Below, piece by piece: positions 5,154-34,288 of a DNA stretch of 38,615 nucleotides (position 1 is its first letter; the number at the start of each line of letters is the position of its first letter). Both the position numbers and the translations under genes were made by a program. The notes beneath the pieces are model-generated. The model saw only the letters and a program-made list of their open reading frames with translations, made no database searches and was not told the DNA's origin. The stretch is taken from the IMG/VR virus record IMGVR_UViG_3300001989_000001, positions 1-38,615 of that record, one strand, 5' to 3'. The DNA is from a virus.

Positions 5154-6407
5154 TTAGGTAGTAATACCAGTAAACGTGCCTTGTACGAACGCCTCTGCAC
5201 GGTATATAGCCAGTGCAACGCGGCCCTCAATACGCACGGTGATCTTGTTGGTAGTAACGTTATTGGCGTCCTGATCAAAGAACTCCACCACCGGTTGCTC
5301 ACGAATGAACAGCTGGCAGCCCAGTTCAAAATCACCTACCAGGTAGGTATCAGCATCAATAGCGGTTGTTTTGTAAACCGGTACACCAGCTACATATAGC
5401 TGACCGTTTTGAATAACCACGATACCAGGCAGATCATATTCACCGGAGCCGGTTGCCTTGTTAAGGGCAATGTCGTAGTAAGCTGCCGGGTGTACTACAA
5501 TGCCGGTAGCGGTGTAATCAGAGCTTTCCAGCTGGCTGATAGCCTTAACTAGACGCTCAATGTTCGGACCGGTAGTAACATTAGCGGCAACGGCAACGGT
5601 CAACAGACCTTCCAGCTGAGGGGATACACCAGAACCGTTTAAGACCTGATTATCTTCAACTTTAAGGTACATTTCCATTAAGCGCATTTGCAAATAGCTA
5701 CGGAAAGCGGCCATATCGTCCAGCATCTTACGGGATACACGCAACCAGCCAGCAATATATTCAGCCGGCACAGTAATCTCGATGAAATCCAGGTCGAACT
5801 GTGGTTTATCGCCATTCTCCAATACTGGGGTGAGTGTGCCCTCTCCGCCCACTTCCCGCATATAGGTCAATGAGCTGGTAGACATGGTGCCCAGCGGTAT
5901 AATCTGTCGCATGTGCACCTTACGATTGGGCAGCGCGCGAATGCCTACCTGAACGGTAGTAAAGTATGCGCCAGCATCCGTAACGTTGGTGGTAATACCC
6001 ATATCACCAGGCGCTTTAGTTTCCTGGGGGGTAATCTTAAATTTCAGACGGCGCCCACCGGTGCGATCTTTAAATTTCTCAATCTCGCTCCAATTATCTT
6101 CAACAGCCTTGCCGATCAGGTCTACAAATTTCAGCTGTTCAGCAGGTGTAAGCTGTTTTTGCTTCATTTGCTTCTCTATGCTCTGAGCATATTCGTTTAC
6201 CGTTTTCAGGTCGGTTTCCTGTTTTTTATACTTTTCTTCCCATTCCAGGGCAGCCTTTTTCATGGCTTCAAGATCGTCGGTTACTTTTTTATGGGCTTCC
6301 TGTGCCTTTTGGGCTTCAGTTTTCAGCCCCTTCACTTCTGTGAGTAATTCCTCAACGCCACCGCCGCCAGGATCCGGAGAATAAAATTTTAAAAACGTTC
6401 TTAGCAT
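5154..6407 (-). CDS. Major capsid protein, HK97 fold, with an N-terminal coiled-coil delta/scaffold domain
   Basis: A 417-aa ORF directly after the prohead protease. About 110 N-terminal residues are charged heptad-like sequence (EELLTEVKGLKTEAQKAQEAHKK...). No separate scaffold gene is present. Confidence 0.85.
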   Translation of the reverse strand: MLRTFLKFYSPDPGGGGVEELLTEVKGLKTEAQKAQEAHKKVTDDLEAMKKAALEWEEKYKKQETDLKTVNEYAQSIEKQMKQKQLTPAEQLKFVDLIGKAVEDNWSEIEKFKDRTGGRRLKFKITPQETKAPGDMGITTNVTDAGAYFTTVQVGIRALPNRKVHMRQIIPLGTMSTSSLTYMREVGGEGTLTPVLENGDKPQFDLDFIEITVPAEYIAGWLRVSRKMLDDMAAFRSYLQMRLMEMYLKVEDNQVLNGSGVSPQLEGLLTVAVAANVTTGPNIERLVKAISQLESSDYTATGIVVHPAAYYDIALNKATGSGEYDLPGIVVIQNGQLYVAGVPVYKTTAIDADTYLVGDFELGCQLFIREQPVVEFFDQDANNVTTNKITVRIEGRVALAIYRAEAFVQGTFTGITT

Positions 6408-6410
6408 AAA

Positions 6411-7142
6411 TTAAATATTATAAAATTTATTAATGGATTTTAACTCCGTAAGAACAGAGCTGTAATCAATGGCCTCTATTAATTGTGCTTCCTGCTCGGG
6501 TGCCTCTGCGGCGGCGCGTTCGGAGATTGCATTATCAGTAGCAGCCTGTATCAATTGGCGCATCTTTATTTCAAGAAGCGTAAAAGTATCGTCGGTGTAT
6601 TTGCCATTACGGAGTCCCTTCATCGTAAGGGTTAATTCATCCTGAATTTCTTCCGGCGTTAGCTTCATAGATTTTATGTCTACGAATTTGGCAGCTGGAT
6701 TCGCAGCCCATAAGACTACCGAGCCCTCAAATAGCTGTATTTCAGATATTTCATTGTATCCATTTTTCTGCTGCTGACGTATGGTGCGGAACCCTATTGA
6801 TTGGTGCTTAAAATGCCCATCTGCGTACATTTGTAATGTATCGCTTGATATATCATTATCAGGCATTTTATGCCGGGCAAGTAGTCCATAGTTATCTTCT
6901 ATGAGCTCAAAGGGGGGGACTAATGGCAAATCTGGATTGTGGAATTTTATAAACCATATTTCACCCAGGCCGCCAGGGCCTTGTTCTTTTATGGTTTTAG
7001 AGAAAGATCCCTTTAGTATGACATCATTATCTCGATCCTTATTATCGAAAGCGGAATAATAAACGGATAGGATTCTACCGGTCGTATCAACGTCCTTAAC
7101 ACTATATTGCTTGGATGTATTTTTTTTACGTGAATATACCAT
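6411..7142 (-). CDS. Prohead maturation protease (HK97/S78-like)
   Basis: A 243-aa ORF 3 nt upstream of the capsid gene. Size and position are typical. No motif-level confirmation was done. Confidence 0.7.
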   Translation of the reverse strand: MVYSRKKNTSKQYSVKDVDTTGRILSVYYSAFDNKDRDNDVILKGSFSKTIKEQGPGGLGEIWFIKFHNPDLPLVPPFELIEDNYGLLARHKMPDNDISSDTLQMYADGHFKHQSIGFRTIRQQQKNGYNEISEIQLFEGSVVLWAANPAAKFVDIKSMKLTPEEIQDELTLTMKGLRNGKYTDDTFTLLEIKMRQLIQAATDNAISERAAAEAPEQEAQLIEAIDYSSVLTELKSINKFYNI

Positions 7143-7179
7143 TTAACCGCTGTTTTGCGGTTCTGGCGGGAGGTCAGCA

Positions 7180-7209
7180 CAAATATATACTTTTTTTCAC
7201 AATACCAAA
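7180..7209 (-). promoter_or_regulatory. Candidate Bacteroidota-type promoter for the protease-capsid-tail operon
   Basis: The minus strand reads TTTG (7209-7206), an 18-nt spacer, then TATATTTG (7187-7180). An AACCGC/GCGGTT hairpin (7145-7162) lies in the leader, 2 nt before the ATG. Confidence 0.5.
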
Positions 7210-7290
7210 TAATTGGGGTAATTTTGTGCCGGTTCTGATAGGAGGTCAAAACTATCAGTTTGTTACAGTTTTGGTTAAAATATTAAAATA

Positions 7291-7314
7291 ATACCCGGTA
7301 TTTCTACCGGGTAT
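7291..7314 (-). terminator. Intrinsic terminator after 7322..7576
   Basis: A perfect 10-bp stem, ATACCCGGTA / TACCGGGTAT, with a 4-nt loop. The minus RNA continues UAUUUUAAUAUUUU. The stem begins 8 nt after the stop codon. Confidence 0.75.
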
Positions 7315-7321
7315 TTTTGTT

Positions 7322-7576
7322 TTAATCCTTCTGGCCGCCATCCGCCACCGTGCCATCTGCTGCCCCGACGGTACCGCTTGCCTGTTTTGCTGATTCCGGG
7401 ATAGCCTCATCTTCCAGCTCCGCTACAAATCGGGTGTGATTTCCCGCTTCCCCTTCCAGCTTACATGCAGGATAACCATTGCTTAAATAGACACTTTTTA
7501 CTGTGAATGTTCCCAGCTGGGGCATAGCCGAGATGTGCACGCGATCGCCCGGTGAGGGCATTTTGAATTTTGCCAT
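7322..7576 (-). CDS. Hypothetical small protein (possible SH3/KOW-like beta protein)
   Basis: ORF track, 84 aa. The PGDRVHI motif resembles the N-termini of 8972..9235 and 9554..9787. Confidence 0.6.
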   Translation of the reverse strand: MAKFKMPSPGDRVHISAMPQLGTFTVKSVYLSNGYPACKLEGEAGNHTRFVAELEDEAIPESAKQASGTVGAADGTVADGGQKD

Positions 7577-7595
7577 ATATATGTGTGTTTAATAA

Positions 7596-8213
7596 TTATC
7601 GTTTAAGTCCAAAATCAGACCGTTTTATTTTGCAATGCCTGCCGTCCGGATGCCACCATACTACCCCCTCAATATCTGGGCGTACATGCAGTAAATAATT
7701 TTTTATCTCATCGAAGGTTCTGGGAAAGTTCGAGATTACATGTATGCCATGGTGTATAAGCTGATGATGATCAAATTTATCTTTATTACCATTTACTTTA
7801 GGCCCAACTAATTCATAGGTACCATTTACAGCATAAAATGTATCATTCCTATCTAATCCATTTCTGATTTTTTGGAATGCTTCCCTATAAAGGGCATCCT
7901 CTGGACCATCACCTACTAATAACCATCCTGGTACATTTCCCGTTATGGGATCCGGATCTTGCGCTGGTAAGAATCCAATGGGAGCTGCCTTCCCATTTTT
8001 AACTTCATGCCTTTTATAGAGTGCGCCTTCCCGTATCATACAACAGGTGCCGTCCCACTTTCTGGTAGCAACACCCTCTCCATTAATCACCCATTCACAA
8101 CCAGGTGTTATTTGTTCTGTAGCCAAAAATCTACCTTTATTAAGGCCTGGCATCGTGGCATAAGTTGTTGGGCTTTCAAAATCCCTTACAAATAATGTTG
8201 GTATTTTCTGCAT
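7596..8213 (-). CDS. Minimal ATP-dependent RNA/DNA ligase-like nucleotidyltransferase
   Basis: Covalent nucleotidyltransferase motifs occur in order: I ATRKWDGTCCMI (KxDG), III TYELVGPK, IV DIEGVVWWH, V CKIKRSDF. At 205 aa there is no room for an OB domain. Confidence 0.6.
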   Translation of the reverse strand: MQKIPTLFVRDFESPTTYATMPGLNKGRFLATEQITPGCEWVINGEGVATRKWDGTCCMIREGALYKRHEVKNGKAAPIGFLPAQDPDPITGNVPGWLLVGDGPEDALYREAFQKIRNGLDRNDTFYAVNGTYELVGPKVNGNKDKFDHHQLIHHGIHVISNFPRTFDEIKNYLLHVRPDIEGVVWWHPDGRHCKIKRSDFGLKR

Positions 8214-8215: not shown

Positions 8216-8815
8216 TTAACTGATTGATGGATCGTGAATATAAAGATATTTGTTGTCCTTGTCCCGTCGATACCTAGCAGCCAATACTATTCTTTTTCCG
8301 TTATCCACACCTTCATATTGGATCATGTAGAAAGGAAGTTTGATAGACCATGCTTTTGTATGGCCATCAAATGGTCCTCCCTGAAGGGTAATACGATCAG
8401 GAAGCTGGCTTGTTATGGGGTTCACATCCCCTGGCACAGACGTATCAATCGTTATTTCTAAGGGTCTGGTATCTTGTATCTGAGAATCCAATTTAGCCCA
8501 CTTATGATTTTCTAATGCCAATTTTTCAACTGTAGGCAATTGAGAGACATTCTTCAGTTTTACCCCGTTATAATAGAAATCGCCATTTACGTGGTAAATT
8601 CGGACTTCAACCGGCTCAGCGTGCCCAGGCATTGTTTTATAGAAATAATCGAAATCTTCCCCATCTGCGCGCGCAATGCGACCGTTCACAATAACCTTCT
8701 TCCCTAGCTTGTGCTCAATCTTTTCTTTTGGGCTCAGTCTATCCAGCTTGTAGATATAACCGGATTCCCGGAGCTGGACGGCAGTTAACTTTGGTTTTCT
8801 CCCCCTTTTAGCCAT
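8216..8815 (-). CDS. Hypothetical protein
   Basis: ORF track, 199 aa, co-oriented, 2-nt gap to the ligase-like gene. Confidence 0.65.
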   Translation of the reverse strand: MAKRGRKPKLTAVQLRESGYIYKLDRLSPKEKIEHKLGKKVIVNGRIARADGEDFDYFYKTMPGHAEPVEVRIYHVNGDFYYNGVKLKNVSQLPTVEKLALENHKWAKLDSQIQDTRPLEITIDTSVPGDVNPITSQLPDRITLQGGPFDGHTKAWSIKLPFYMIQYEGVDNGKRIVLAARYRRDKDNKYLYIHDPSIS

Positions 8816-8975
8816 TTTTCTTTTTATTAAGCCACTTACGCAGCAGGTTATTGATTAACTCTGACCTGTTAAGATCTTTGGTTGCCAAATACAGATCTGT
8901 ATCAATGTAAGTATTAACAACCGTTTTCCCGTCCGGATTCGATTTGGGGCGTCCTTGCCCTGCTTTATTACTCAT
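8808..8975 (-). CDS. Small ribbon-helix-helix-like DNA-binding protein (55 aa; below the ORF-track cutoff)
   Basis: Hand translation: MSNKAGQGRPKSNPDGKTVVNTYIDTDLYLATKDLNRSELINNLLRKWLNKKKNG. It has an ATGA overlap with the upstream stop and an 8-nt overlap with the downstream start. The order is beta strand then two helices. Confidence 0.55.
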   Translation of the reverse strand: MSNKAGQGRPKSNPDGKTVVNTYIDTDLYLATKDLNRSELINNLLRKWLNKKKNG

Positions 8976-9235
8976 AGTTTAACTGTTTTCTTTTTCCTTG
9001 GTGCTGCCTTCAATAGTTTGGCGCGTAATTTAATACCATCATCTTTATCGTCATAACACCATACATGGAACGGATTAGGGGCATTAGTTACCTTTACATA
9101 AAGCTCCTGACCTCCTGCGCATGTAATACTTTCTTTTACAACCTCCCCAGTAAACGGCTGTGATACCGCATGTGGTATGTTCACCCCTTCTAACACCCTT
9201 ATTTTATCCCCTACCTTAAACCTTCTCTTTGGCAT
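8972..9235 (-). CDS. Hypothetical small protein (paralogue-like to 9554..9787)
   Basis: ORF track, 87 aa. Shares a VGD.I.V..G.N...F.G pattern and a later WCY/YCY with 9554..9787. Confidence 0.65.
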   Translation of the reverse strand: MPKRRFKVGDKIRVLEGVNIPHAVSQPFTGEVVKESITCAGGQELYVKVTNAPNPFHVWCYDDKDDGIKLRAKLLKAAPRKKKTVKL

Positions 9236-9561: not shown

Positions 9562-9787
9562 TGTTTGCGGATTTAATTATTTCAACATTAAACTCGTTCC
9601 CCCTACCTGGATAAGGATAGCAATACATTCCAAATTCATAATCAGGATGAGAAACAATAATGCATGGCTGAAATAGACACTTTTTATCTACTTCTGTTAT
9701 AATGCCCAGAAATGGCATTGTGTTAGCTACATTTGCACCTGTATGCACTATCACTAAATCACCTACATTATATTCCTGTTGTGACAT
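9554..9787 (-). CDS. Hypothetical small protein
   Basis: ORF track, 77 aa. First gene of the leftward accessory unit. Confidence 0.65.
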   Translation of the reverse strand: MSQQEYNVGDLVIVHTGANVANTMPFLGIITEVDKKCLFQPCIIVSHPDYEFGMYCYPYPGRGNEFNVEIIKSANND

Positions 9788-9814
9788 ATTTAATCATTTC
9801 TGCAAACCTAATAC

Positions 9815-9866
9815 TAATTACGCAAATAAAAAAATAAACTTTCTTAAATAATTATTTGCGCAATTA
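9815..9866. promoter_or_regulatory. 15-bp inverted repeat (operator-like) in the divergent control region
   Basis: TAATTACGCAAATAA (9815-9829) matches the reverse complement of TTATTTGCGCAATTA (9852-9866) at 14 of 15 positions. The spacer is 22 bp. An exact third copy lies at 23730-23744. Confidence 0.55.
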
Positions 9867-9886
9867 AATAATTCATCTTATCTTTG
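9855..9886 (+). promoter_or_regulatory. Bacteroidota-type promoter of the rightward accessory cassette
   Basis: TTTG (9855-9858), a 20-nt spacer, then TATCTTTG (9879-9886). This is the TTTG/TAnnTTTG consensus, 28 nt upstream of the ATG at 9914. Confidence 0.6.
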
Positions 9887-9913
9887 TTTTATCAATTCAA
9901 AAACACACGAAAT

Positions 9914-10180
9914 ATGGCACACGCAAACTTAACCGAACAGCTTAAACAAATTGGCATCTATGAAGGTGCTGTACTTAATTGTTTTTACACTACCGGGGAG
10001 CAGCACGGATCAATAACCATTACCCGTGTAACTGAAAAATCAGTATTTCATGCTAAGCACGGATTAGGTAATGGTGAATTTCGTGATTCCCATCTCACCG
10101 TTATAAAGAACGTAACTAAGCTGAATGTTTGGCGTCCTACATTCAATAAAGTGATTGGGGGAAAATCGATTATAAAATAA
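9914..10180 (+). CDS. Hypothetical protein
   Basis: ORF track frame. The ATG at 9914 (MAHANLTEQ...) was chosen because the track start at 9884 is TTG lying inside the -7 box. Confidence 0.65.
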   Translation: MAHANLTEQLKQIGIYEGAVLNCFYTTGEQHGSITITRVTEKSVFHAKHGLGNGEFRDSHLTVIKNVTKLNVWRPTFNKVIGGKSIIK

Positions 10181-10192
10181 TTCATCACCTAC

Positions 10193-10207
10193 CAGGGCTC
10201 GGCCCTG
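10193..10207 (+). promoter_or_regulatory. Intergenic GC hairpin 1 of the rightward cassette
   Basis: CAGGGC tcg GCCCTG. TTAAA follows at 10210, then 14 nt to the ATG at 10224. Confidence 0.45.
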
Positions 10208-10223
10208 TCTTAAATCATACAAT

Positions 10224-10376
10224 ATGGTACCGGAATCAAGAGTGAACGAGTTCATAAGAAAATATACAGGTGCTGATAAAAGAGAGTTGCGGGATAGGAT
10301 AAAATCCTTAAAGAAGAAAAGTAAGACAACAGCCGTACAGGCGGAAATAAAAGCCATAACGGCGCTATTAGCATAA
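10224..10376 (+). CDS. Hypothetical 50-aa basic protein (below the ORF-track cutoff)
   Basis: Hand translation: MVPESRVNEFIRKYTGADKRELRDRIKSLKKKSKTTAVQAEIKAITALLA. It fills the gap between two hairpin-punctuated spacers in the same orientation as its neighbours. Confidence 0.5.
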   Translation: MVPESRVNEFIRKYTGADKRELRDRIKSLKKKSKTTAVQAEIKAITALLA

Positions 10377-10387
10377 TTAATTCACCT

Positions 10388-10407
10388 GCCGGGCTTACGG
10401 GCCCGGC
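10388..10407 (+). promoter_or_regulatory. Intergenic GC hairpin 2
   Basis: GCCGGGC ttacgg GCCCGGC. TTAAA follows at 10408, then 15 nt to the ATG at 10423. Confidence 0.45.
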
Positions 10408-10422
10408 TTAAAACACTATTCC

Positions 10423-10653
10423 ATGAAAAAATATTACTTCCCTGTTGGGCGTTATGGACCAACACCAGATATTGTAAATGCTAAGGATTTTTGGGGTTAT
10501 GCTATGCATTTAAGAATAATACAATTGCGTAATTGCTTGTCAGCACGGCGCATGTTTCATGATTCGGTTGAAAAGGTCGAATGGGATGTGCATATTTCTA
10601 ATATTATAAAAACCATCCGTTTTTGTAAAAACCGGTTAGCTTCTTATAATTAA
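10423..10653 (+). CDS. Hypothetical protein
   Basis: ORF track, 76 aa. Confidence 0.65.
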   Translation: MKKYYFPVGRYGPTPDIVNAKDFWGYAMHLRIIQLRNCLSARRMFHDSVEKVEWDVHISNIIKTIRFCKNRLASYN

Positions 10654-10660
10654 CTTATTT

Positions 10661-10672
10661 GGCCTTCGGGCC
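10661..10672 (+). promoter_or_regulatory. Intergenic GC hairpin 3 (UUCG tetraloop)
   Basis: GGCC ttcg GGCC. TTAAA follows at 10677, then 15 nt to the ATG at 10692. Confidence 0.45.
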
Positions 10673-10691
10673 TGGTTTAAATCTTTATATA

Positions 10692-10970
10692 ATGGCAAAA
10701 TCTGACAAACCACAGACGAGATATATCGCAGTCCTGCATCCTAAAAGGGGTTATACTAACTGCGGATACGGCGATGTATTAAATCGTCGTTGGAGAGGCA
10801 AGAAACAATTCCATAGCCTATCTGATGCCCTTATATGGATAGATAAGGTGAGGGGAACAATGCATAAACATAAAAGGCCCTGGCGCGCATTCCAGGTATT
10901 GCAGCATAAGAACTACGAAACTGAAACGCTTATTTTTGCATATATGGAAAACGAAACAATTGTAATATAA
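10692..10970 (+). CDS. Hypothetical protein
   Basis: ORF track frame. The ATG at 10692 (MAKSDKPQ...) is preferred because the track start at 10659 lies inside hairpin 3. Confidence 0.65.
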   Translation: MAKSDKPQTRYIAVLHPKRGYTNCGYGDVLNRRWRGKKQFHSLSDALIWIDKVRGTMHKHKRPWRAFQVLQHKNYETETLIFAYMENETIVI

Positions 10971-11006
10971 CACGCCTCATATCCGCTGTGTAAATACAAA
11001 ACAATA

Positions 11007-11366
11007 ATGAGACTTACGTATAAGAAACTTATTGAGTACATTAACCAAGCACTTGAAAGAGTGGGGGCAAATGACATAGAAGCATTTGAGGCCTATAATC
11101 CAAGATTTAGGGGACAAGATATTGAGAATGGGGCGGCGCTGATAATTGTTAGGTTTGGCGCTAAGGGTGAAAATATGTTCGGTAGTGCGGAAATGTTTTC
11201 GTTCTGTTATACAATAAAAGATTTTGAACGGGAGCTGAACAAAGGCGCAGTAATCGGCTTTGATCTTAACCCAAGATTTGGACGCTTAGGCGGATGGAAT
11301 GATGCAGAAATAAAACCTGTTTACTTAAAACCGCACCCGCTACGGACACGGGCAAATAATGGATAG
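11007..11366 (+). CDS. Hypothetical protein
   Basis: ORF track, 119 aa. Confidence 0.65.
   Translation: MRLTYKKLIEYINQALERVGANDIEAFEAYNPRFRGQDIENGAALIIVRFGAKGENMFGSAEMFSFCYTIKDFERELNKGAVIGFDLNPRFGRLGGWNDAEIKPVYLKPHPLRTRANNG
11331..11358 (+). promoter_or_regulatory. Conserved 28-nt pre-start motif, copy A (CCCG ctacggaca CGGG hairpin)
   Basis: CCGCACCCGCTACGGACACGGGCAAATA followed by the ATG at 11359. Copy B lies at 11590. Confidence 0.5.
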
Positions 11367-11589
11367 AATAATGAAAGTTTTGTTTGAAGAGGCAATCGGC
11401 GGGTTACTGGATGCGGACCCATCAGCTGTAGGGAAAATACATTTAATGGGGCCCAGCATGGATATAGATAGCACTGCCTGTGGGTTGCCAGTTGATGAAT
11501 TTATAGTCGTTGAAACAACAGGCAAAATAACATGTGATACCTGCAAGCAGTTTCAAGAATGGGCTAAAAAAGTCAGTAAAATAAAATAA
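11359..11589 (+). CDS. Hypothetical protein
   Basis: ORF track, 76 aa. Confidence 0.65.
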   Translation: MDRIMKVLFEEAIGGLLDADPSAVGKIHLMGPSMDIDSTACGLPVDEFIVVETTGKITCDTCKQFQEWAKKVSKIK

Positions 11590-11616
11590 CCGAACCGGCT
11601 ACGGACACCGGAAGTA
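11590..11616 (+). promoter_or_regulatory. Conserved pre-start motif, copy B (CCGG ctacggaca CCGG hairpin)
   Basis: CCGAACCGGCTACGGACACCGGAAGTA followed by the ATG at 11617. The stem differs from copy A by a compensatory C-G to G-C swap. Confidence 0.5.
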
Positions 11617-11859
11617 ATGAAAAATTTAAGTATAAATCAATGGGCCAGTAAGGTAGAAGCATTAAAGAAAAAGCACAAGCTCACACCAAAATACCTTACA
11701 GCGGAAATTCACTACCGGAACCATACACATCTGGATTGTGCACGGATAATATATGTATTATATTTAGATGATCCAAGGATGATTATTGAAAACGCACACC
11801 CACATCTATGCCTTAGCTACGCAGAAGAATTAATAACATCAATAAAATTATCAACATGA
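11617..11859 (+). CDS. Hypothetical protein, tandem paralogue 1
   Basis: MKNLSINQW...KKHKLTPKYL...IHYRNHTH aligns with MKNLTIKQW...EKHGLTQSYM...IQYREHTA of the next gene. Confidence 0.7.
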   Translation: MKNLSINQWASKVEALKKKHKLTPKYLTAEIHYRNHTHLDCARIIYVLYLDDPRMIIENAHPHLCLSYAEELITSIKLST

Positions 11860-12110
11860 AAAATCTTACTATAAAACAATGGACGCGAATCTGTAAAAAG
11901 GTTCAGGAAAAGCACGGACTGACACAATCCTACATGTGCGTAAACATCCAATATCGTGAACATACTGCACATGGATGGGTGCCTTTTGTGGAGTATGGTA
12001 TATATTTCAGTGAGCTGGGCATTGCCACCGAATGGGATCAGGATTGGAAGAAATGTATCCGTATTATTGAGGCACAAATTTTATTGTATAAATCACGTAA
12101 ACAAGATTAA
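11856..12110 (+). CDS. Hypothetical protein, tandem paralogue 2
   Basis: See 11617..11859. The start overlaps the upstream stop by 4 nt. Confidence 0.7.
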   Translation: MKNLTIKQWTRICKKVQEKHGLTQSYMCVNIQYREHTAHGWVPFVEYGIYFSELGIATEWDQDWKKCIRIIEAQILLYKSRKQD

Positions 12111-12111
12111 T

Positions 12112-12348
12112 ATGGATAGGACTATGATCCAGTGTCTTATAGAGTTGCCGGAACCATACAGAACTGAGGCGCTTAATAATATACCAGAAAACACACCAAA
12201 TTACATGTGCCGTAGTGTATGTGATGCCCTGGCGCGTGCATTCGTATGGTGGAAAACGCCACAGGGAACTAATTATTGGATGGAAATATTTATTTCATTC
12301 CTTCAAAAACTGCATAATGACCAAAACGAATGTGCCGACAATTCATAA
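12112..12348 (+). CDS. Hypothetical protein
   Basis: ORF track frame 11956..12348. The ATG at 12112 (MDRTMIQCLIELPEPYR...) lies 1 nt after the upstream stop. Confidence 0.6.
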   Translation: MDRTMIQCLIELPEPYRTEALNNIPENTPNYMCRSVCDALARAFVWWKTPQGTNYWMEIFISFLQKLHNDQNECADNS

Positions 12349-12592
12349 GCTGGCAGGTCTTATTCTTCAGGAATCTGGCTATAGCGGACTGATAACGGCA
12401 GCTTTTGAGGAAAACGCGCTGGTATTCAGGTTCAAGGAGAAATGGCAAGGAGAGGCAGCTATGTTTGAATTAAAGAGGTTGGCAAAGAAACATAGATTGC
12501 TGTTTGACCTGTCATTATTTTTTATAAACGGGAAACATACCATTATATTGGTTGAACGGGGAAATGGCGTAAAAACACTATTAAGGAGTTAA
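12317..12592 (+). CDS. Hypothetical protein (last gene of the rightward cassette)
   Basis: ORF track frame 12215..12592. The ATG at 12317 (MTKTNVPTIHKL...) was chosen. Its 3' end overlaps the convergent 12581..13414 by 12 nt. Confidence 0.6.
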   Translation: MTKTNVPTIHKLAGLILQESGYSGLITAAFEENALVFRFKEKWQGEAAMFELKRLAKKHRLLFDLSLFFINGKHTIILVERGNGVKTLLRS

Positions 12593-13414
12593 TCTTACAA
12601 GGCGTCCGGAAGCATCTCTCTCTGCTTCATAAATAACCTTGCATAAACAGTTGCAGATGTTTCCGGCACTTCCTTCCTGATCTCCGGGATAAAGCATAAA
12701 TTCCCCACCCGTTTTACTGGGAACGAGAAACCTTTCATCCTGGCGCACCGTAACCATGTGCATATTGAAATGATCAAATTGATCTTTTGGTAACCTCCTG
12801 GTGCTCCAACGACGGGCACTTATCCATCGTTTTATGAGCACCAAGCCTGTTTGGTTGGCGGCAACGGTAGCGCCAAAGCTGGCAGCACCTAAAGACTCAG
12901 TGCGCGTTATCAGGCGGGCGCGGGCATCATTTACATCAGGCGATAATAGCAACCTCCTGGTGTCCCATACGTCCAGCCCTTGATCCTGTGCTTTCTGTAA
13001 CAGTATATTGATCCGCTGTTGCTCTGTGCGGGTCATTTGGGTTATTTTCCTGGCCGATATAATATCAAAAAATCCCTGTATCAATCCCCTCCATATAGAA
13101 TTGAACCCAAAGGATTTATTTTGCCTTATCTCCGGATAAAGCGCCAATAAATTACCATATTCGCTATTGGCTGAATCCAGACCAACGGCAATCCACAGTT
13201 TATTGATAGATTTTATGGTGTTTGTGGACCGATATAAAGAAGGAGCCAGCACTAGTGTCTCAGCTATACTATGTGAAGTGAGGTAATCCAGAACCGGCTT
13301 TAAATCGGCCTGGATAGCGGATAATATCCGGGGTGCCCACTGCTTTTCATATCGGATCTGTTGCCGCTGTAGCTGCCGAAAGCGCTTATTTATCTGTACC
13401 GTTATCATTTTCAT
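12581..13414 (-). CDS. Head morphogenesis protein, Mu F / SPP1 gp7-like
   Basis: 277 aa with ITRTESLGAASFGATVAANQ, KRWISARRWSTRR and a C-terminal GNICNCLCKV (NCxC) region, typical of the Phage_Mu_F family. Confidence 0.75.
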   Translation of the reverse strand: MKMITVQINKRFRQLQRQQIRYEKQWAPRILSAIQADLKPVLDYLTSHSIAETLVLAPSLYRSTNTIKSINKLWIAVGLDSANSEYGNLLALYPEIRQNKSFGFNSIWRGLIQGFFDIISARKITQMTRTEQQRINILLQKAQDQGLDVWDTRRLLLSPDVNDARARLITRTESLGAASFGATVAANQTGLVLIKRWISARRWSTRRLPKDQFDHFNMHMVTVRQDERFLVPSKTGGEFMLYPGDQEGSAGNICNCLCKVIYEAERDASGRLVRLTP

Positions 13415-13784
13415 GATTGAATGGCGATCTAAATTTTATTGGATCTAGGGAGGGAAGGTACAATTTATCAAGGGACTCATAAACACCCTTTGATGCTTTA
13501 TTGATGGCTATTTTATTTAGGTCGGCCTCCGGGATAAAATACTCAGGCCCATCCAGATCATTTCCCGTTGTTGCCATCTGCGGGCCAAATATAACCCCTC
13601 CGGATGGGTGCGGCGGAATAGGGTTGTTTCCTGATGATAGCTGATGAGCTGCCAACATGAGCTGTATATATTGTGAAATCCTGGTTTTAGTTTCCTCCCT
13701 GAGCCATTCCTTTTTAGCCCTGATCCGCTTGCAGTCTGACGGTGCGAATGGTATAGCTTTTTCTATGATTTCATCTATGGTCAT
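13386..13784 (-). CDS. Hypothetical protein
   Basis: ORF track, 132 aa, 4-nt overlap with the upstream glycosyltransferase gene. Confidence 0.6.
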   Translation of the reverse strand: MTIDEIIEKAIPFAPSDCKRIRAKKEWLREETKTRISQYIQLMLAAHQLSSGNNPIPPHPSGGVIFGPQMATTGNDLDGPEYFIPEADLNKIAINKASKGVYESLDKLYLPSLDPIKFRSPFNHENDNGTDK

Positions 13785-14350
13785 GTTGTTGGAATTTTTG
13801 ATGTTTTAATTAAATGATCATATTTACTCCCAGGGTCTTGCTCTATACCGGCACGGTAGGCGTGCATGAGGTATAGCCCCTGAGCCACTCCTAATTTACC
13901 ATTATTCCGCCGCACTTGGGTACAAAACATGGAATCGAAATGCGGGGTGTTCTCTTTAAAGCCCCGGCATAGCTCCCATGTCTTTTTCTGGAAGATCATA
14001 CAGGCCGCCGCAATCGGGCCGCTTGTAGGCGCCACTAAATCGTAATACCGGCCTTTACGGTCAGCTGCCACCTCTTTATGAAAGATCAGATTATAATTTG
14101 TACTTGGATAGGTTCCCACCAGCTGAGCGGATACGCAACAACGGCTGAGCATGGCACCTATTACCATATATTTATTATAGTTTTTACTTATAATATCCTC
14201 AATCTGCTTTCCCCAATAGTCGGTAAGGAACATCACATCCCCATCCATCAGTACCACCCAATCATTGGCGTCAGGTATTAAGCTCAGCTCCCGGTTGATA
14301 GCCCTACCAAAGTTTTTGCCGGTGTCCCATATAGTGCGGTAATATATCAT
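13781..14350 (-). CDS. Glycosyltransferase, GT-A fold (small, single domain)
   Basis: 189 aa. WVVLMDGDVMF is a DxD motif in a context resembling GT2-type transferases (GKNFGRAINRELSLIPDANDW...). Confidence 0.6.
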   Translation of the reverse strand: MIYYRTIWDTGKNFGRAINRELSLIPDANDWVVLMDGDVMFLTDYWGKQIEDIISKNYNKYMVIGAMLSRCCVSAQLVGTYPSTNYNLIFHKEVAADRKGRYYDLVAPTSGPIAAACMIFQKKTWELCRGFKENTPHFDSMFCTQVRRNNGKLGVAQGLYLMHAYRAGIEQDPGSKYDHLIKTSKIPTT

Positions 14351-14547
14351 AATTTCACATTATCTATTTCCTTACTTTTCATTTTGTTGAAAAGCCTTAA
14401 TCCAGACCGGGCGGCAATGGCATTGTGTATCATATCCACCATGTGCCCCATTTGCTGCCTTTCATTCATGCATTCTTCCGGCAGCTGGACAAACTTATTC
14501 CAAAAGGCCTGCATGTGCTCTATAAGCTCTTTTTCTTTCTTTGTCAT
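14347..14547 (-). CDS. Hypothetical small protein
   Basis: ORF track, 66 aa, 4-nt overlap downstream. Confidence 0.55.
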   Translation of the reverse strand: MTKKEKELIEHMQAFWNKFVQLPEECMNERQQMGHMVDMIHNAIAARSGLRLFNKMKSKEIDNVKL

Positions 14548-14571
14548 AATAATGTTATTAAAATGTGATAA

Positions 14572-15975
14572 CTATTTATGTTTCCACCAGGCAGCTGACT
14601 GTGTTTGCTCAGCCTTAAATACTGTCGTTACCTGGCGCCCATGAACTGGCTTAAAATGGCTATATGCTACCAGGTTGAATATTCCCATGTCAGTCAATCC
14701 GGCACCGTGCATACGCCGTAGCTTCGCATCTTCTTCAAATTGGGTGTAATAATCGATCATTTTGCCACAGAAATCTATCACCGTATCTACATCACCGCCC
14801 AGGATGCCGGCATTTAATAATGGCTGCGTACGCCATTTTATTATCATATTCTGAATGACCGGGTGTTTGTGATGTGTCTTTAACCATGCATTATTGACAG
14901 TGCCCGGCTCATCTCCGGTGTAAAGAACGCCCCGACTCATGTGAGGATATGGATTATTGAGCATTATCACATCTGTTGCATCCACACACCATACGAATCC
15001 CAGTGTATGCCGGTGATCTATCAAATATTTTCGGTAGCTGATCCAGCGCTGAAAATACGGATTAATTAAACACTCAGCCCCGGCGCCGTTGGGGGGAGGA
15101 ATCAACATACAGTCATTCAGCACCATTATTTCACGATAAGGAATAGAATTGAACAGCGGCATAACGGCTGAGGCATCAGGTTTCCAGCTCTCCCCGCGTT
15201 GCGGATCTGGCTGCCCAACGAAAAAGGAGGTCAATACTAGGTTTTTCCCCTCCCGGTATGGCACATACTCCTTACTGTACTTCCGGGCGTCATACATAGG
15301 CTTATTTCGCTGAATGGCAGCAGATCGATCCCTACCTATGCAGGTAGATATAACTGCCTGATGCTCATCGCCTGCAAAAAATAATTTATTGCTCCCTGGT
15401 ACATCCATATAACGAAAAGTGGTTAAGCCTGCATTATAGATCCTATTGGATAGGTCCGGATGTTCATATCCCCATTTACCGAACCCTGGATGCATACCAC
15501 CCACTTTGCTGAGGCACTCCTTGGTTAAATATAACATGCAACCGCGCGGATGTGAATAGGTTATTTTAGTGCTGTCCTGGTAAATAATAGCTGTGTCATT
15601 GAGCCGTATGTTAGTGCTGAAGTCCGGAAAGATGTACATAAGGTGTGGCTCCGAATGCTCCACATATGGTTTCCACCAGTCAGCCACAACCGGAAATGTA
15701 TCTTCATCAAATAGAAAAAAATGGGTGCAGCCGATATTTTCTAGTAATTCAAGACACTTATTTTTAGCCCTGGCAATACCCACGTTATTATTAAAACGGT
15801 AGCCTATTACATCCCATTTATTTAATACATATTGTGCAATGTTTTCATCGCTTGCATCATCAACAACGACTATGCAGCACTCAATATTTTTAGGAAGTAA
15901 ACAAGTGAGGTGATCCAGGCAATCTGCCAGCTCTTTCTTGCGGTTATGCACCGTTACGCCAATTCCTATTTTCAT
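14572..15975 (-). CDS. Two-domain glycosyltransferase (N-terminal GT2-like half plus a C-terminal nucleotide-diphospho-sugar-transferase-like half)
   Basis: N-terminal half: IGVTVHNRKKEL, CCIVVVDDASDE, FFLFDEDTF (DxD). C-terminal half: FVWCVDATDVIMLNNPY and LNAGILGGDVDTV, which resemble a second GT-A domain. Confidence 0.7.
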   Translation of the reverse strand: MKIGIGVTVHNRKKELADCLDHLTCLLPKNIECCIVVVDDASDENIAQYVLNKWDVIGYRFNNNVGIARAKNKCLELLENIGCTHFFLFDEDTFPVVADWWKPYVEHSEPHLMYIFPDFSTNIRLNDTAIIYQDSTKITYSHPRGCMLYLTKECLSKVGGMHPGFGKWGYEHPDLSNRIYNAGLTTFRYMDVPGSNKLFFAGDEHQAVISTCIGRDRSAAIQRNKPMYDARKYSKEYVPYREGKNLVLTSFFVGQPDPQRGESWKPDASAVMPLFNSIPYREIMVLNDCMLIPPPNGAGAECLINPYFQRWISYRKYLIDHRHTLGFVWCVDATDVIMLNNPYPHMSRGVLYTGDEPGTVNNAWLKTHHKHPVIQNMIIKWRTQPLLNAGILGGDVDTVIDFCGKMIDYYTQFEEDAKLRRMHGAGLTDMGIFNLVAYSHFKPVHGRQVTTVFKAEQTQSAAWWKHK

Positions 15976-15999: not shown

Positions 16000-17445
16000 T
16001 TATTCGCTCTCGTATGGATTCGCATTATTATCCTGCAATGTACGCATTTCATTTGTTAAATCGTTCGGCTGGGCGAATAAATCTGATAATAAACTTACAC
16101 CAGACGGAACCGGTATTGCGTTAAGCTGCTCATCGGTCAATCCTTCAGGCATATCCTCACCCATAATCTCATACCTGCGACGTAAAGGCAAATATGATTT
16201 ATCCAGCCATTCAACTTGATCTTTCTTGGACTCTTCCAGCTCAGTGTAGCACTGAAGATCTGGACTTACTATTATGTTTGAGTTCTTGTATTTGGCCAGG
16301 CTACGGAGCTTCCTGTTAAAACTGGCCTCACGGGACAAAATAAGAGGTATAGCGCAGTTTGCCGTCAATGAGCGCTCTCCGGTAGACTGGTTATTATACG
16401 TACTGGCATCTGTGCTGAATAGAACGGGAGGGGCATTATATATCAGCGCGCCCATGGTCAAATCAAATTTACTTGCCTCTAACAGATCCATTTCAACAGA
16501 CGTAAGCCCCAGCCGGGTAGCGCCCAGCTTAAAAGGGCTCCATACAGTGCTGCCGGCATTGTTAACGCCTTTCTGTTCTGCGTTCCATTCCTGTTTGAGC
16601 TTACCGCTTTGTTCAAGGGCTAATTTAAACTCATCTTCACCGGTAATACGCTGATCATCCAGGTATACCACTACATCAGCGCCGCCGTTCTGTGCCATCT
16701 TAATGGCGCGGATCTGGCCGGTGTTATTCCGCTGCAATCTCATGCAATATGCCTTTAATGGAGACATGCCATATAGCTGATTGCCGTATATATCCCATTC
16801 CGGATTGAAATATTTTTCATGCAATATATCTTCCTTGGTAAAGGGTACTTCCGTTCCTACCTGAAGCAAATAACCGGCTTCCGTTAACGGGAGAGAATTA
16901 GAGGAAAGAATGCTGGTGTATTGAGGGGGCAGCCCATAATGCTGCAAGGGGATGCCGCCATCCAAGCCGCCGCTGGCTAAATTATCCCATCCAGCTTCAA
17001 AGTAGTCACCGGTAGCCAGCTTATAGGTGTAATGACCATACAGCAGCTGGGAGCCGGTTTCATTTTCATTTGGGAACTCTAACAGCCGGGTTAGGCCCCC
17101 ATCATCTACTTTTACCAGGGACTTCTTTAGCAATTGCATAGCCCTTTTGTAGTCCTGAGAAGTATCGTGTTTTGATATTGATACTTTCTTTAATATTGAC
17201 TGGGCCAGCAGGTAATCCTTTTCATCAACTACTTTATAGGCTCCCCAGGTTGGAATAACAGCCTTTTCAACTATCTTTTTGATAACGCTGTATACGATGT
17301 CATTGTAGGCGTAGCCGCGTTCTATGTAGGTCAGCTTATCGTGTTTATATGGCACAAGCTGGCCACCTATAAACCTAAAACCCGGTATGCTTGGAAGATT
17401 GGCAGCTTTGCGGCCCCCAAAAAGGCGAGAGAATATATTAGCCAT
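16000..17445 (-). CDS. Portal protein
   Basis: A 481-aa ORF 3 nt downstream of the large terminase. Size and position are canonical. Confidence 0.8.
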   Translation of the reverse strand: MANIFSRLFGGRKAANLPSIPGFRFIGGQLVPYKHDKLTYIERGYAYNDIVYSVIKKIVEKAVIPTWGAYKVVDEKDYLLAQSILKKVSISKHDTSQDYKRAMQLLKKSLVKVDDGGLTRLLEFPNENETGSQLLYGHYTYKLATGDYFEAGWDNLASGGLDGGIPLQHYGLPPQYTSILSSNSLPLTEAGYLLQVGTEVPFTKEDILHEKYFNPEWDIYGNQLYGMSPLKAYCMRLQRNNTGQIRAIKMAQNGGADVVVYLDDQRITGEDEFKLALEQSGKLKQEWNAEQKGVNNAGSTVWSPFKLGATRLGLTSVEMDLLEASKFDLTMGALIYNAPPVLFSTDASTYNNQSTGERSLTANCAIPLILSREASFNRKLRSLAKYKNSNIIVSPDLQCYTELEESKKDQVEWLDKSYLPLRRRYEIMGEDMPEGLTDEQLNAIPVPSGVSLLSDLFAQPNDLTNEMRTLQDNNANPYESE

Positions 17446-17448: not shown

Positions 17449-18810
17449 TTATATAGTTGCGGCCCACAGAGTTTGCCGGGGCCTTATTTCATCAAAAATA
17501 GACATTATTAAGTTGTCCAGGTAATCTGGGGACCTACCTAATATCTCTTTTATTTTTATTTTGGGCATTAACCGGAATGGGCCGTCTTTGTCAATGTCGG
17601 CTTTCTTCAGCTGCTCTAGCTCTGCAATGATCATTTCCTTTACCTCCGGATCGTCACATTCAATATATAGCATAGAGGACATTATGCGCTTTGCCAGCCA
17701 ATAACCGCACTGGCTTTTCAGGTGATCGTAATTGCCGGGCAACTTTTTTCCAGTTTTGGGATCTATCTTTGGGTTTTCCGGCTCAGGCACTGGTCGGGAG
17801 TTATTCACGAACCCGGTACAACCCGGTATCTGGTCCACAACCCCCCCGCCTATGCCATCTTCATCAATTATTATCTTGCTGGCCGGCACTCCATGTTCCT
17901 TAGCAATACCCTTCAGGCGCTGTGAAACCTGCGTAGTGCTGAGATGTTTATGTGTCTCAAATTTAAGGTGAAACGGGCTGAACCATTTACTAATGGTAGT
18001 CTTATCCTTACCGAATCGCGCCACGTCACAGCCCAGGCGCATAACCTGGTCAGAGGGAGATTTTAAGTGCACATTGGTAAAGCACTCTACAATTTTATCG
18101 AAATCTATCAGGGTAGCTGGATCATCGTCATACTCCCAATTACCATGTGCCAGGCGCATTACGCTTTGCTTGTCCAGGCTAAGTAATGTTTGTAGATAAT
18201 GCTTTGAAATATCCGGGTTATCCTTCGCCAGAGCCTGTATAAATTTCCGATCAGGCGGCAATGTGCCATCTTTCCACGGCTTATAAAATCGGGTGTAAAC
18301 ATAATTCTTAGCAGGATTGCAGCTGCCCAGCAATTTGGGCCTGAGCCCGTATTCATCCAGCCGGTAGCGCATTCGGCTCTTAACAATATTGAATGCTTTT
18401 TCTACGGTCTGGTTACACTCATCAATAAATCCATCCGTTATTTCCAGGGAGCCCAGCTCATCAAAATTGGGATCTGTAGGATAAAAAAACAGATCTTTCA
18501 GGAAGATCATGCTCCCGTTTGTGAAGGATATTACGCCCTGTTGCTGGTGGTAATTATAGTGATCAACCACCCGGCAGTCCTGTAAGCGACAAACCTCAAA
18601 GAAAGACAACAGCGTTGTTTCTTTAAGGGTTTTAAGTGAAGCCCTGCCCAACAATCCCCTGGTGCCAGGGTATTTCATGCGCCGTTTAAGCTGAAAGTAT
18701 GAGCCCAGTATAGATTTACCGCCGCCAGCTCCGCCGCCGAAAAGCAGCTCATTTGTTACATCGTCTTCCAGATAATCAAGCGCCTGCGTCTGCTTTAGGT
18801 TCAAGATCAT
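17449..18810 (-). CDS. terL: Terminase large subunit
   Basis: Walker A LFGGGAGGGKS near the N-terminus. The start at ATG 18810 (MILNLKQTQALDYL...) is preferred. The track ORF extends to 18912, which would overlap terS by 137 nt. Confidence 0.9.
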   Translation of the reverse strand: MILNLKQTQALDYLEDDVTNELLFGGGAGGGKSILGSYFQLKRRMKYPGTRGLLGRASLKTLKETTLLSFFEVCRLQDCRVVDHYNYHQQQGVISFTNGSMIFLKDLFFYPTDPNFDELGSLEITDGFIDECNQTVEKAFNIVKSRMRYRLDEYGLRPKLLGSCNPAKNYVYTRFYKPWKDGTLPPDRKFIQALAKDNPDISKHYLQTLLSLDKQSVMRLAHGNWEYDDDPATLIDFDKIVECFTNVHLKSPSDQVMRLGCDVARFGKDKTTISKWFSPFHLKFETHKHLSTTQVSQRLKGIAKEHGVPASKIIIDEDGIGGGVVDQIPGCTGFVNNSRPVPEPENPKIDPKTGKKLPGNYDHLKSQCGYWLAKRIMSSMLYIECDDPEVKEMIIAELEQLKKADIDKDGPFRLMPKIKIKEILGRSPDYLDNLIMSIFDEIRPRQTLWAATI

Positions 18811-19291
18811 TTCCCGGTTTTTGGTAAGTCTTTGTTTCCTGCCATACGATGCCCATATTCCCGCTGTGTTCAGTTTCCACCTTATCCTTCCACCCCATGT
18901 TTTTGAGGGCAAAGATGGAGCCCGTAGGGGTGCTGCCGTGTAGATTTGATTCGTATCCCATTTCCACCTGCATCCTTGCGCGCTTTATTAGGTGTGAAAA
19001 CTCTGGTCTATCCTGGTATTCATAAAGCATGGATTTATCACTAAATCCCAGGTACAGCGCTAGGCCGGTAACCGTATAAGGCTTGGGCCTACGCGAATAG
19101 GGATCATCCGGCGCGTTGCCATCCTCATCAACCAGCTGCCCTTCCTCATTCACCTGTACCCCGGGCTTCAGCTTGCCGTTGCACCATTCAAAATATGCGT
19201 CAATCTCTACGGCCATTTCTTCCGGACTTCCATACATCCGGGGGCGGCCGCCATTATTACCAACTGAAAATTTGTTTCCTGGCTGAAACAT
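18776..19291 (-). CDS. terS: Terminase small subunit
   Basis: 171 aa with GGRPRMYGSPEEM, PYTVTGLALYLGFSDKSMLYEY and FALKNMGWKDK, typical of the small terminase (gp3-type) family. It lies immediately upstream of terL. Confidence 0.85.
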   Translation of the reverse strand: MFQPGNKFSVGNNGGRPRMYGSPEEMAVEIDAYFEWCNGKLKPGVQVNEEGQLVDEDGNAPDDPYSRRPKPYTVTGLALYLGFSDKSMLYEYQDRPEFSHLIKRARMQVEMGYESNLHGSTPTGSIFALKNMGWKDKVETEHSGNMGIVWQETKTYQKPGNDLEPKADAGA

Positions 19292-24663: not shown

Positions 24664-24727
24664 AGATAAAGGCAATTATTGCAGTATTCGTAAATCTTGA
24701 AAGAAGTAACTGCAATTTGGCCTATAG

Positions 24728-24799
24728 TGTGTAAAATTGGAATCGAACCAATAACCACGGGACTTCAACCCGCCGCTCTACCGTTGGAGCTATTTACAC
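24728..24799 (-). tRNA. tRNA-Phe (anticodon GAA)
   Basis: Hand-folded cloverleaf: GUGUAAA ua GCUC caacggua GAGC g GCGGG uuGAAgu CCCGU gguu AUUGG uucgauu CCAAU UUUACAC a. Length 72 nt, no encoded CCA. Confidence 0.9.
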
Positions 24800-24913
24800 A
24801 TTTCCGCCCTTGACGTTTAGCGGTACACGGGCTAAATCTTTTCAGATCAGGTAGTTTTAACTACGTTTAGGCATACGCCTTTCGCCACATATCCGGGATT
24901 TCGCCGGAACTCG

Positions 24914-24984
24914 CATGGGTTGCAGGAATCGAACCTGCACACTGGGTTTTGGAGGCCCATATACTACCATTATACTAAACCCAA
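24914..24984 (-). tRNA. tRNA-Trp (anticodon CCA), atypical
   Basis: Fold: UUGGGUU ua GUAU aauggua GUAU a UGGGC cuCCAaa ACCCA gugu GCAGG uucgauu CCUGC AACCCAU g. It has a U1.U72 mismatch, a C31.A39 mismatch and a D stem with two G.U pairs. The CUCCAAA loop is typical of Trp. Confidence 0.7.
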
Positions 24985-34286: not shown

Positions 34287-34288
34287 AA

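Follow-up and report, generated by a model that had tools for sequence, protein, structure and literature searches.

The 38,615-nucleotide viral genome IMGVR_UViG_3300001989_000001 from IMG/VR, analysed over its whole length and referred to here as the window, carries a cassette of glycosyltransferase (GT) genes between its portal gene and a MuF-like head-morphogenesis gene. Based on comparison with related phages we consider it likely that this cassette is a phage-encoded system that O-glycosylates the C-termini of the phage's own major capsid protein (MCP) and major tail (tube) protein (MTP), acting in the cytoplasm late in infection. The cassette encodes a large GT of 467 amino acids (GT467, 14572-15975) and a small GT of 189 amino acids (GT189, 13781-14350), both on the minus strand. 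MCP and MTP, the two most abundant virion proteins, carry the same C-terminal Thr-Thr (TT) tag, an indication that the particle is coated with sugars by the phage itself. A preliminary description of this DNA had offered virion glycosylation and late modification of cell-envelope glycans as possible functions. The former is preferred here because the large GT is of the type found in the mycobacteriophages Rita and Ramsey, because the cassette is placed similarly to that of mycobacteriophage Corndog, because TT tags co-vary with GT189, and because the partner gene sets of other phage glycosylation systems are not seen among the window open reading frames (ORFs) searched.

The glycosyltransferase cassette

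GT467 is a soluble protein with two tandem GT-A domains. The N-terminal domain (~15271-15975) contains a DxD motif formed by Asp90 and Asp92 (15700-15708), while the C-terminal domain (~14575-15249) has D-A-T-D instead of the canonical DxD, with Asp332 and Asp335 (14971-14982) invariant; invariant residues were taken from an alignment of 50 sequences. The Pfam matches Glycos_transf_2 (PF00535, above cut-off) and Glyco_transf_7C cover residues 6-189, i.e. the N-terminal half only, and a search of PDB sequences with the family profile also gave GT2-like matches to the N-terminal domain only. GT467 matches the PHROG family phrog_1579, 'glycosyltransferase', from end to end (4.9e-144). An AlphaFold2 model built from 50 homologues has a mean predicted local distance difference test score (pLDDT) of 93 and shows two GT-A domains. 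The top Foldseek matches are heparosan synthase 2 (PmHS2), the chondroitin polymerase K4CP, COLGALT1, LARGE1 and LH3, with alignments of more than 500 columns and E-values down to 2e-12 at ~12% identity; the global TM scores of only 0.3-0.4 reflect a different orientation of the domains. No transmembrane segment was found in GT467. Family searches, model and fold comparison thus all bear out that 14572-15975 encodes a two-domain GT, as had been proposed.

GT467 is homologous over its full length, with ~41% identity, to the large GT of hundreds of cluster F mycobacteriophages, represented by Ramsey gp106 and Rita gp101 (Rita gp101: E-value 5e-117, 41% identity, full length). A total of 383 phage records span at least 80% of GT467, and Cronobacter phage ENT39118 is matched as well. 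Kinship of GT467 or GT189 with gp108, gp109 and gp110 of mycobacteriophage Che8 was considered and rejected, as the comparison gave no homology. Since Che8's own GTs are unrelated to GT467, the link to the mycobacteriophages runs via the Ramsey/Rita-type GTs and the C-terminal tags. The family comprises ~1,470 members at E <= 1e-5, many of them on contigs of 37-42 kb, and occurs in prophages of Bacteroidota, of Actinomycetota (Micromonospora, Dactylosporangium), of many Enterobacterales, and of Pseudomonas and Luteimonas.

The preliminary description had called a virion-glycosylation module of this kind unusual. This holds when measured against the literature and fails in sequence space, given the size of the GT467 family. 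To our knowledge, phage virion glycosylation has so far been demonstrated in mycobacteriophages only, and Freeman 2023 reportedly saw little evidence of it elsewhere. A literature search returned no paper that carries virion glycosylation beyond the actinobacteriophages and none that describes C-terminal tags of the kind discussed here. Ten other phages have been stained and none was found to be glycosylated (PMC12894461).

GT189 is a minimal GT-A glycosyltransferase with a DGD motif at 14237-14245. It has no Pfam match and is matched by phrog_26101 and phrog_14179, both 'glycosyltransferase'. The AlphaFold2 model (pLDDT 96.4) shows a minimal GT-A fold, whose best PDB fold matches are the polypeptide GalNAc-transferases (ppGalNAc-Ts) T2, T1, T12 and T4. 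Asp36, Asp38, Arg70, His163 and His179 are invariant across 87 homologues, and the family counts 567 representative clusters. No transmembrane segment was found in GT189. The PHROG families and the predicted fold are in agreement with the earlier assignment of 13781-14350 as a small GT-A protein. For both enzymes, membership of the GT-A class is further supported by the invariance of the paired aspartates D90/D92 and D332/D335 in GT467 and D36/D38 in GT189. A search of PDB sequences with the GT189 profile gave nothing significant; GmaR appeared at E = 0.55 and is not usable.

The small GTs of the mycobacteriophage systems, Che8 gp110 and Corndog gp38, belong to a different family. The gp110 family has no tblastn match anywhere in the window, and BLASTP comparisons of GT467 with Che8 gp110 and of GT189 with the gp110-type GT of Cronobacter phage ENT39118 gave nothing significant. 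A distant kinship of GT189 and gp110 was rejected after alignment of family against family with hhalign, which gave a probability of 5.5%.

All ORFs named in the preliminary description were recovered on the minus strand, namely portal, GT467, orf66, GT189, orf132 and the MuF-like gene, and the motifs quoted from them (VVVDDASDE, FLFDEDTF, VWCVDATDV, LNAGILGGD and LMDGDVMF) are present in the translations. The three GT domains and two small ORFs occupy 2.6 kb between the portal gene (16000-17445; Pfam Phage_portal, 4.9e-23), which forms the upstream boundary of the insertion, and the MuF-like head-morphogenesis gene (12581-13414; phrog_2468, 3.9e-27), which forms the downstream boundary. The expectation that portal and MuF-like genes normally adjoin was confirmed in insert-free relatives (L009-L015 and L025, the L numbers denoting related loci), where they lie 159-312 nt apart. 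The cassette is therefore a real insertion at a defined site.

It shares the orientation of the late genes and lies inside the packaging and head module, as described before. We infer that it is co-transcribed with the terminase, portal and head genes. The 4-nt overlaps reported earlier were found at two of the five junctions (orf66/GT189 and GT189/orf132, each an ATGA); the other three are a 29-nt overlap (orf132/MuF) and two 24-nt gaps. Promoter-like and terminator-like sites between 11500 and 19800 are no commoner than in shuffled sequence, in a scan whose coverage does not extend to Bacteroidota promoters. A single weak terminator-like site was seen, within the portal gene and immediately upstream of the cassette.

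Orf66 (14347-14547, minus strand) gave weak matches only (phrog_13916 at 4e-4 and HSA at 0.08) and no tblastn match among the related loci; it is not conserved in relatives, which hold unrelated small genes at its position. One of these relatives, L222, encodes between its GT467 and GT189 homologues a 109-amino-acid protein (8712-9041) with a precomputed Pfam match to Acb2_Tad1_hairpin, an anti-CBASS/Thoeris sponge family. Orf132 (13386-13784, minus strand) has no Pfam or PHROG match. Its first ~40 amino acids are conserved in the gene that occupies the corresponding place, between GT189 and MuF, in L008, L018, L020 and L029; orf132 may belong to head morphogenesis rather than to glycosylation.

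C-terminal tags on capsid and tail proteins

Among 168 six-frame ORFs of at least 50 amino acids in the window, three end in TT, and these are MCP, MTP and GT189. The MCP tail (...TGITT, 5157-5171, minus strand) comes after the conserved core ...AFVQGTF, and the MTP ends in ...IPPTT (2689-2703, minus strand); both tails are proposed glycan acceptors. As in the mycobacteriophage systems, MCP and MTP both end in a hydroxy amino acid, here Thr and not Ser.

GT189 itself ends in ...KIPTT (13784-13798), with its last codon and stop overlapping the ATG of orf132. This ending was rejected as a conserved feature of the family, as the homologues lack the extension and its end overlaps the start codon of the next gene. 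The resemblance to the tags is probably a coincidence, although a role in self-glycosylation or as a pseudo-substrate is conceivable.

To follow the tags through close relatives we used IMG/VR genomes fetched with portal and MCP probes, whose MCPs are 60-83% identical to that of the window. In these genomes short variable tails follow the conserved MCP core and the conserved end of the MTP, and the two tails change in concert within each genome. The same tag is also found on the head-closure protein and sometimes on the portal. L020 and L018, which carry GT467 and GT189, have MCP and MTP tags GVTT and APTT. L222 has the same pair of enzymes with tags VPTT and APTT, and its head-closure protein ends in QYTT. 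L021 (identical with L008) has GT189 together with a fusion of a hexapeptide acyltransferase and a GT2 domain and with a GT-B enzyme, in the absence of GT467, and its tags are FPTT and LPTT; L221 likewise combines TT tags and GT189 without GT467. L023 and L024 encode a GT467 homologue of 539 amino acids with an N-terminal extension and no GT189, and their MCP and MTP end in NIPVS and LPVS. Finally, L025 has no cassette, its portal and MuF genes lie 166 nt apart, and its tags are EPEE and APEE. Thus, the tags follow the cassette: TT occurs with GT189 whether or not GT467 is present, PVS with a GT467 homologue alone, and PEE where the cassette is missing.

The content of the cassette varies among these relatives, which carry genes for an RMNT_CmcI-type methyltransferase, GT-B enzymes, acyltransferases and WDGH-domain proteins. 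By analogy, such variation is what a glycan-diversifying locus would look like, and it parallels the cassette of Corndog with its methyltransferase and three GTs.

The relationship between small GT and tag was further analysed in a survey of ~200 related loci, with GT pairing scored in 80 viral and 69 genomic loci. A GT467 homologue adjoins either a GT of the GT189 family or one of the Che8 gp110/Corndog gp38 family, and never both. Tags were counted after removal of duplicates in genes encoding at least 100 amino acids, from 49 GT189-type and 110 gp110-type loci. At the GT189-type loci 61 of 834 genes end in TT, with at least two such genes in 22 of the 49 loci, whereas the 2073 genes of the gp110-type loci include only 2 with a TT ending and 64 with a GS ending (at least two in 21 of the 110 loci). 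A paired test counted loci where a capsid-size ORF and a tail-size ORF, encoded on the same strand, share a dipeptide that ends in Ser or Thr; here GT189-type loci gave 27 Thr and 1 Ser pairs and gp110-type loci 0 Thr and 27 Ser pairs (Fisher p = 7.6e-15, indicative only, since the loci are phylogenetically related and p-values overstate their independence). The dominant endings are TT for Thr, at the GT189-type loci, and GS for Ser, at the gp110-type loci. Pro occupies position -3 in 20 of the 61 TT tags and is common at -3 or -4.

Five loci were checked for the identity of the tagged proteins. Each of the five capsid-size ORFs that end in TT matches a PHROG family of major head proteins (phrog_10, phrog_29 and phrog_617); of the tail-size ORFs two match the major tail family phrog_1407 and two an unnamed family. 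For L040, one of the loci in this check, both ORFs were reported without a match. As the tagged ORFs belong to several PHROG families, the TT tag sits on divergent structural proteins. Related arrangements occur in cultured phages: in the Cellulophaga phages phi18:1, phi12:1 and phi17:1 the interval from MuF to protease holds a gene for a 407-amino-acid GT with a GT189-like C-terminal domain (gp41 in phi18:1), and the C-termini of MCP and MTP are ...SGT and ...VGT.

Homologues of GT467 occur with both Thr and Ser tags and are therefore not tag-specific. Prophages of Enterobacterales (Pantoea, Enterobacter, Citrobacter, Kosakonia and Superficieibacter) and one Pseudomonas prophage combine a GT467 homologue with a gp110-type GT. 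In these prophages (L151-L219, e.g. L170, L174, L180, L182, L187, L188 and L210) capsid-size and tail-size proteins end in ...GS, sometimes in ...TS. The cultured Cronobacter phage ENT39118 (L001/L006) also has a GT467 homologue and a gp110-type GT, with the endings ...SSGS and ...AAGS. The combination of GS tags with a gp110-type GT predicts virion glycosylation in enterobacterial phages.

Proposed pathway and alternative explanations

According to the pathway that we favour, the GTs would be made from the late operon along with terminase, portal and head proteins. GT189 would recognise a short, often Pro-containing tail ending in Thr-Thr and, judging from co-variation and fold, transfer a first sugar from a host nucleotide-sugar to the Thr hydroxyl. 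GT467, with its two GT-A active sites, would then extend the glycan by two or more sugars or by a repeating disaccharide; it would act irrespective of the tag and be common to the Ser-tag systems of mycobacteriophages and enterobacterial prophages. Each virion would thereby acquire a coat of hundreds of identical glycans. For a Bacteroidota phage such a coat could serve in shielding, stability or adhesion.

The proposed division of labour draws on several lines of comparison. We infer that GT189 is a tag-specific initiating polypeptide O-glycosyltransferase, because this family switches with the tag residue and accompanies TT even without GT467, and because it fills the role of the essential gp110/gp38 and folds most like the ppGalNAc-Ts. 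GT467, in turn, would be the tag-agnostic elongating enzyme with two active sites.

A number of observations weigh against this pathway. Glycosylation in GT189-type phages is deduced wholly by comparison. The similarity of GT189 to the ppGalNAc-T fold is modest (E ~1e-4, TM score ~0.54, identity ~10-13%), and any GT-A enzyme might score similarly. As GT189 is without detectable kinship to gp110, its acceptor specificity is deduced from context and not transferred by homology. L119 pairs a GT189 homologue with GS tags. In the coliphage nieznany, a Phapecoctavirus, a run of four GT genes (gp197-gp200; L223, 20001-23145) stands among replication genes and begins with a GT189 homologue, and no Ser or Thr tag is common to the capsid, decoration, sheath and tube proteins. 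A generalisation from the GT189 family to tagged virions was rejected on account of this phage. L025 (IMGVR_UViG_3300049579_000065, also L150), with an MCP 61% identical to that of the window, keeps a concerted PEE tag without a hydroxyl group on the proteins encoded at 6444-7754 and 9602-10024, and inspection of 27 of its 36 kb revealed no GT or ATP-grasp enzyme. Capsid and tail proteins can therefore have a C-terminal tag in common in the absence of glycosylation, and PEE may stand for some other modification of the C-terminus or have a structural role. In L023 (117-1586, 9944-11158) and L024 (11767-12099, 13086-13529) portal, MCP, head-closure-like and tail proteins end in ...PVS beside a GT467 homologue; a search for an initiating GT found no GT189 or gp110 homologue there, only a WDGH-domain protein (PF25311) and small ORFs without assigned function.

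The exceptions in L025, L023/L024, L119 and nieznany would also be compatible with GTs that glycosylate phage proteins at sites other than the tags, which might serve instead in assembly or another modification, or with reversed roles, GT467 initiating and GT189 elongating. We regard both variants as unlikely. GT467 occurs with Thr and with Ser tags while the small-GT family switches with the tag residue, and L021 and L221 combine TT tags and GT189 without GT467. In addition, the small GT gp110/gp38 is the essential one, and glycans of mycobacteriophages are placed at C-termini (PMC12619734).

A different target, a host envelope glycan such as lipopolysaccharide/O-antigen, capsule or a lipid-linked intermediate, was also considered. 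Modified late in infection or in lysogeny, it could block superinfection or the re-adsorption of progeny to lysing cells, and the tags would be unrelated. Both GT467 and GT189 are generic GT-A/GT2-like enzymes, homologues are labelled 'glycosyltransferase involved in cell wall biosynthesis' by their sources, the cassettes of relatives resemble polysaccharide loci in having genes for GT-B enzymes, acyltransferases and sugar O-methyltransferases, and the best fold matches of GT467 are polysaccharide polymerases. We nevertheless consider this quite improbable. The GTs have no membrane segments, and no flippase, no GtrA/B-like or polyprenol-linked partner and no integrase was found in the Pfam and PHROG searches of the window ORFs, several small ones of which lay outside the scan or had no detectable family. 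This agrees with the earlier remark that neither a GtrA/B-type nor a hypermodified-base partner set is visible. Moreover, the cassette lies inside the head-assembly module and not in a moron or lysogeny region, and an envelope target leaves the co-variation of the small-GT family with the C-terminal residue of capsid and tail proteins unexplained.

Glycosylation of phage DNA as a hypermodified base that evades restriction is most improbable: phage GTs are classically DNA glucosyltransferases and the GT189 homologue of nieznany stands in a four-GT cluster among replication genes, but the same searches gave no deoxynucleoside monophosphate hydroxymethylase, no TET/5mYOX enzyme, no cytosine methyltransferase and no other nucleotide-modifying gene among the window ORFs that they covered, the cassette is part of the packaging and head module, the folds match protein and polysaccharide GTs and not T4-type DNA GTs, and the co-variation with the tags is again left unexplained.

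Virion O-glycosylation at the tags may be part of something broader. On balance we lean towards the idea that C-terminal 'glyco-tags' on capsid and tail-tube proteins constitute a general, modular system that can be read from sequence, in which at least two unrelated families of initiating GTs write on the tags, GT189 on those ending in Thr (TT or GT) and gp110 on those ending in Ser (GS or TS), the shared two-domain GT extends the glycan, and methyl-, acyl- and GT-B enzymes add variation, and which has spread widely through the siphophages and prophages that infect Bacteroidota, Enterobacterales and Actinomycetota. If so, glycosylated virions would be a frequent feature of phages in general instead of one confined to mycobacteriophages, and the PVS and PEE tags would point to more, undescribed C-terminal modifications of virions. 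Glycan coats would be expected on the particles of Bacteroidota phages and, by extension of the argument, on those of many -GS-tagged enterobacterial prophages. Sequence alone would then suffice to predict glycosylated phages and their acceptor sites, given the family of the small GT and the C-terminal dipeptide of MCP and tail-tube protein. Two unrelated initiators with different residue specificity would offer natural tools for attaching glycans to the C-termini of proteins or of therapeutic phages in a site-specific manner. A glycan shield changes how a particle is recognised by antibodies and cleared, how stable it is and how it adheres, and unexpected mass shifts can account for capsid peptides that are lost in virion proteomics. 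Cultured test systems exist in the Cellulophaga phages phi18:1, phi12:1 and phi17:1 and in Cronobacter phage ENT39118.

Genomic setting and comparison with known systems

A terminal direct repeat of 79 bp (1-79 and 38537-38615) indicates that the window, assembled as a circle, represents the complete genome of ~38.5 kb. The phage is of siphovirus type and HK97-like. All structural genes named here lie on the minus strand. Upstream of the portal gene the ORF list and the Pfam/PHROG scans place the small terminase (18776-19291) and the large terminase (17449-18912). As listed, the large-terminase ORF begins with a TTG at 18912 and has 137 nt (18776-18912) in common with the small-terminase gene, but its true start probably lies further downstream. 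The protease (6411-7142) is followed by the MCP gene (5154-6407; phrog_10, major head protein), then by adaptor, head closure, neck and the MTP gene (2686-3129; phrog_1407 and phrog_41, major tail protein), and the tail genes wrap round to 31644-38335.

The host is likely a member of the Bacteroidota, because the nucleotide matches of the window, weak ones to Flavobacterium and Cellulophaga phages only, and its protein relatives, located in genomes of Chitinophaga, Dysgonomonas, Proteiniphilum and Flavobacterium, point in this direction. Between the MuF-like gene and the head genes the minus-strand late operon is broken by about eight small plus-strand ORFs without family matches (9884-12592). 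Relatives carry comparable opposite-strand blocks at the same site, and the block resembles a moron region. A 205-amino-acid protein (7596-8213, minus strand), whose gene belongs to the head module and precedes that of the protease, matches phrog_14301 'RNA ligase' (1.9e-62) and Pfam RLIG1. Genes for tRNA-Phe(GAA) and tRNA-Trp(CCA) are found on the minus strand at 24727-24984.

Among phage-encoded glycosylation systems, the seroconverting prophage systems GtrA/GtrB/GtrX have the encoding of glycosyltransferases in common with the window. Gtr systems need membrane proteins and a bactoprenol carrier and act on the O-antigen in lysogens. No multi-transmembrane Gtr-like ORF is present among the 66 called genes of the window, and no Gtr family was detected among the ORFs searched. 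A parallel of another kind is the chlorovirus PBCV-1 (A111/114R), where virus-encoded multidomain GTs place glycans on the virus's own major capsid protein in the cytoplasm (PMC7826918). Unlike the phage studied here, PBCV-1 is a giant virus of eukaryotes, with atypical N-linked glycans at internal Asn residues, unrelated enzymes and no C-terminal tag.

With respect to the individual enzymes, GT189 resembles the ppGalNAc-Ts (family GT27) in its GT-A fold and DxD motif, and ppGalNAc-Ts start O-glycans on Thr or Ser in Pro-rich contexts. Unlike these, GT189 has only 189 amino acids and no lectin domain, so that the likeness is one of fold and chemistry and not of family membership. The architecture of GT467 with two GT-A domains is shared with PmHS2, the E. 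coli K4 chondroitin polymerase, COLGALT1 and LARGE1, and this likeness suggests two distinct transfer reactions carried out by one polypeptide. Unlike the heparosan and chondroitin synthases, GT467 is not known to polymerise sugars.

The closest comparison is with the mycobacteriophage systems of Che8 (gp108-110), Corndog (gp35-38) and Myrna. Their glycans sit at the C-termini of capsid and tail-tube subunits, as stated in PMC12619734, which cites Freeman 2023, and Che8 gp110 and Corndog gp38 have been described as GTs essential for capsid glycosylation (PMC12363180). The cluster F phage Rita has been reported to be glycosylated (PMC11256854). In Corndog, whose virions are glycosylated, the cassette of a methyltransferase and three GTs lies just downstream of the portal gene, between portal and protease (PMC4351075). 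The translated capsid and tail proteins end in ...KTGS and ...SDGS in Che8 (MCP and MTP), ...PDGS and ...SDGS in Ramsey, and ...LVGS and ...KGDS in Corndog. As in these phages, the window encodes soluble GTs within the late structural operon, and as in cluster F it includes a homologue of the large two-domain GT. Unlike Che8 and Corndog, it has no small GT of the gp110/gp38 family and carries the unrelated GT189 family instead; it differs further in the Thr-Thr tag, compared to Gly-Ser, in its Bacteroidota-type host and in being known from sequence alone. Taken together, the comparison suggests that the module has a large GT in common with the Che8/Corndog system and operates in the same manner, with an unrelated small GT and with Thr.

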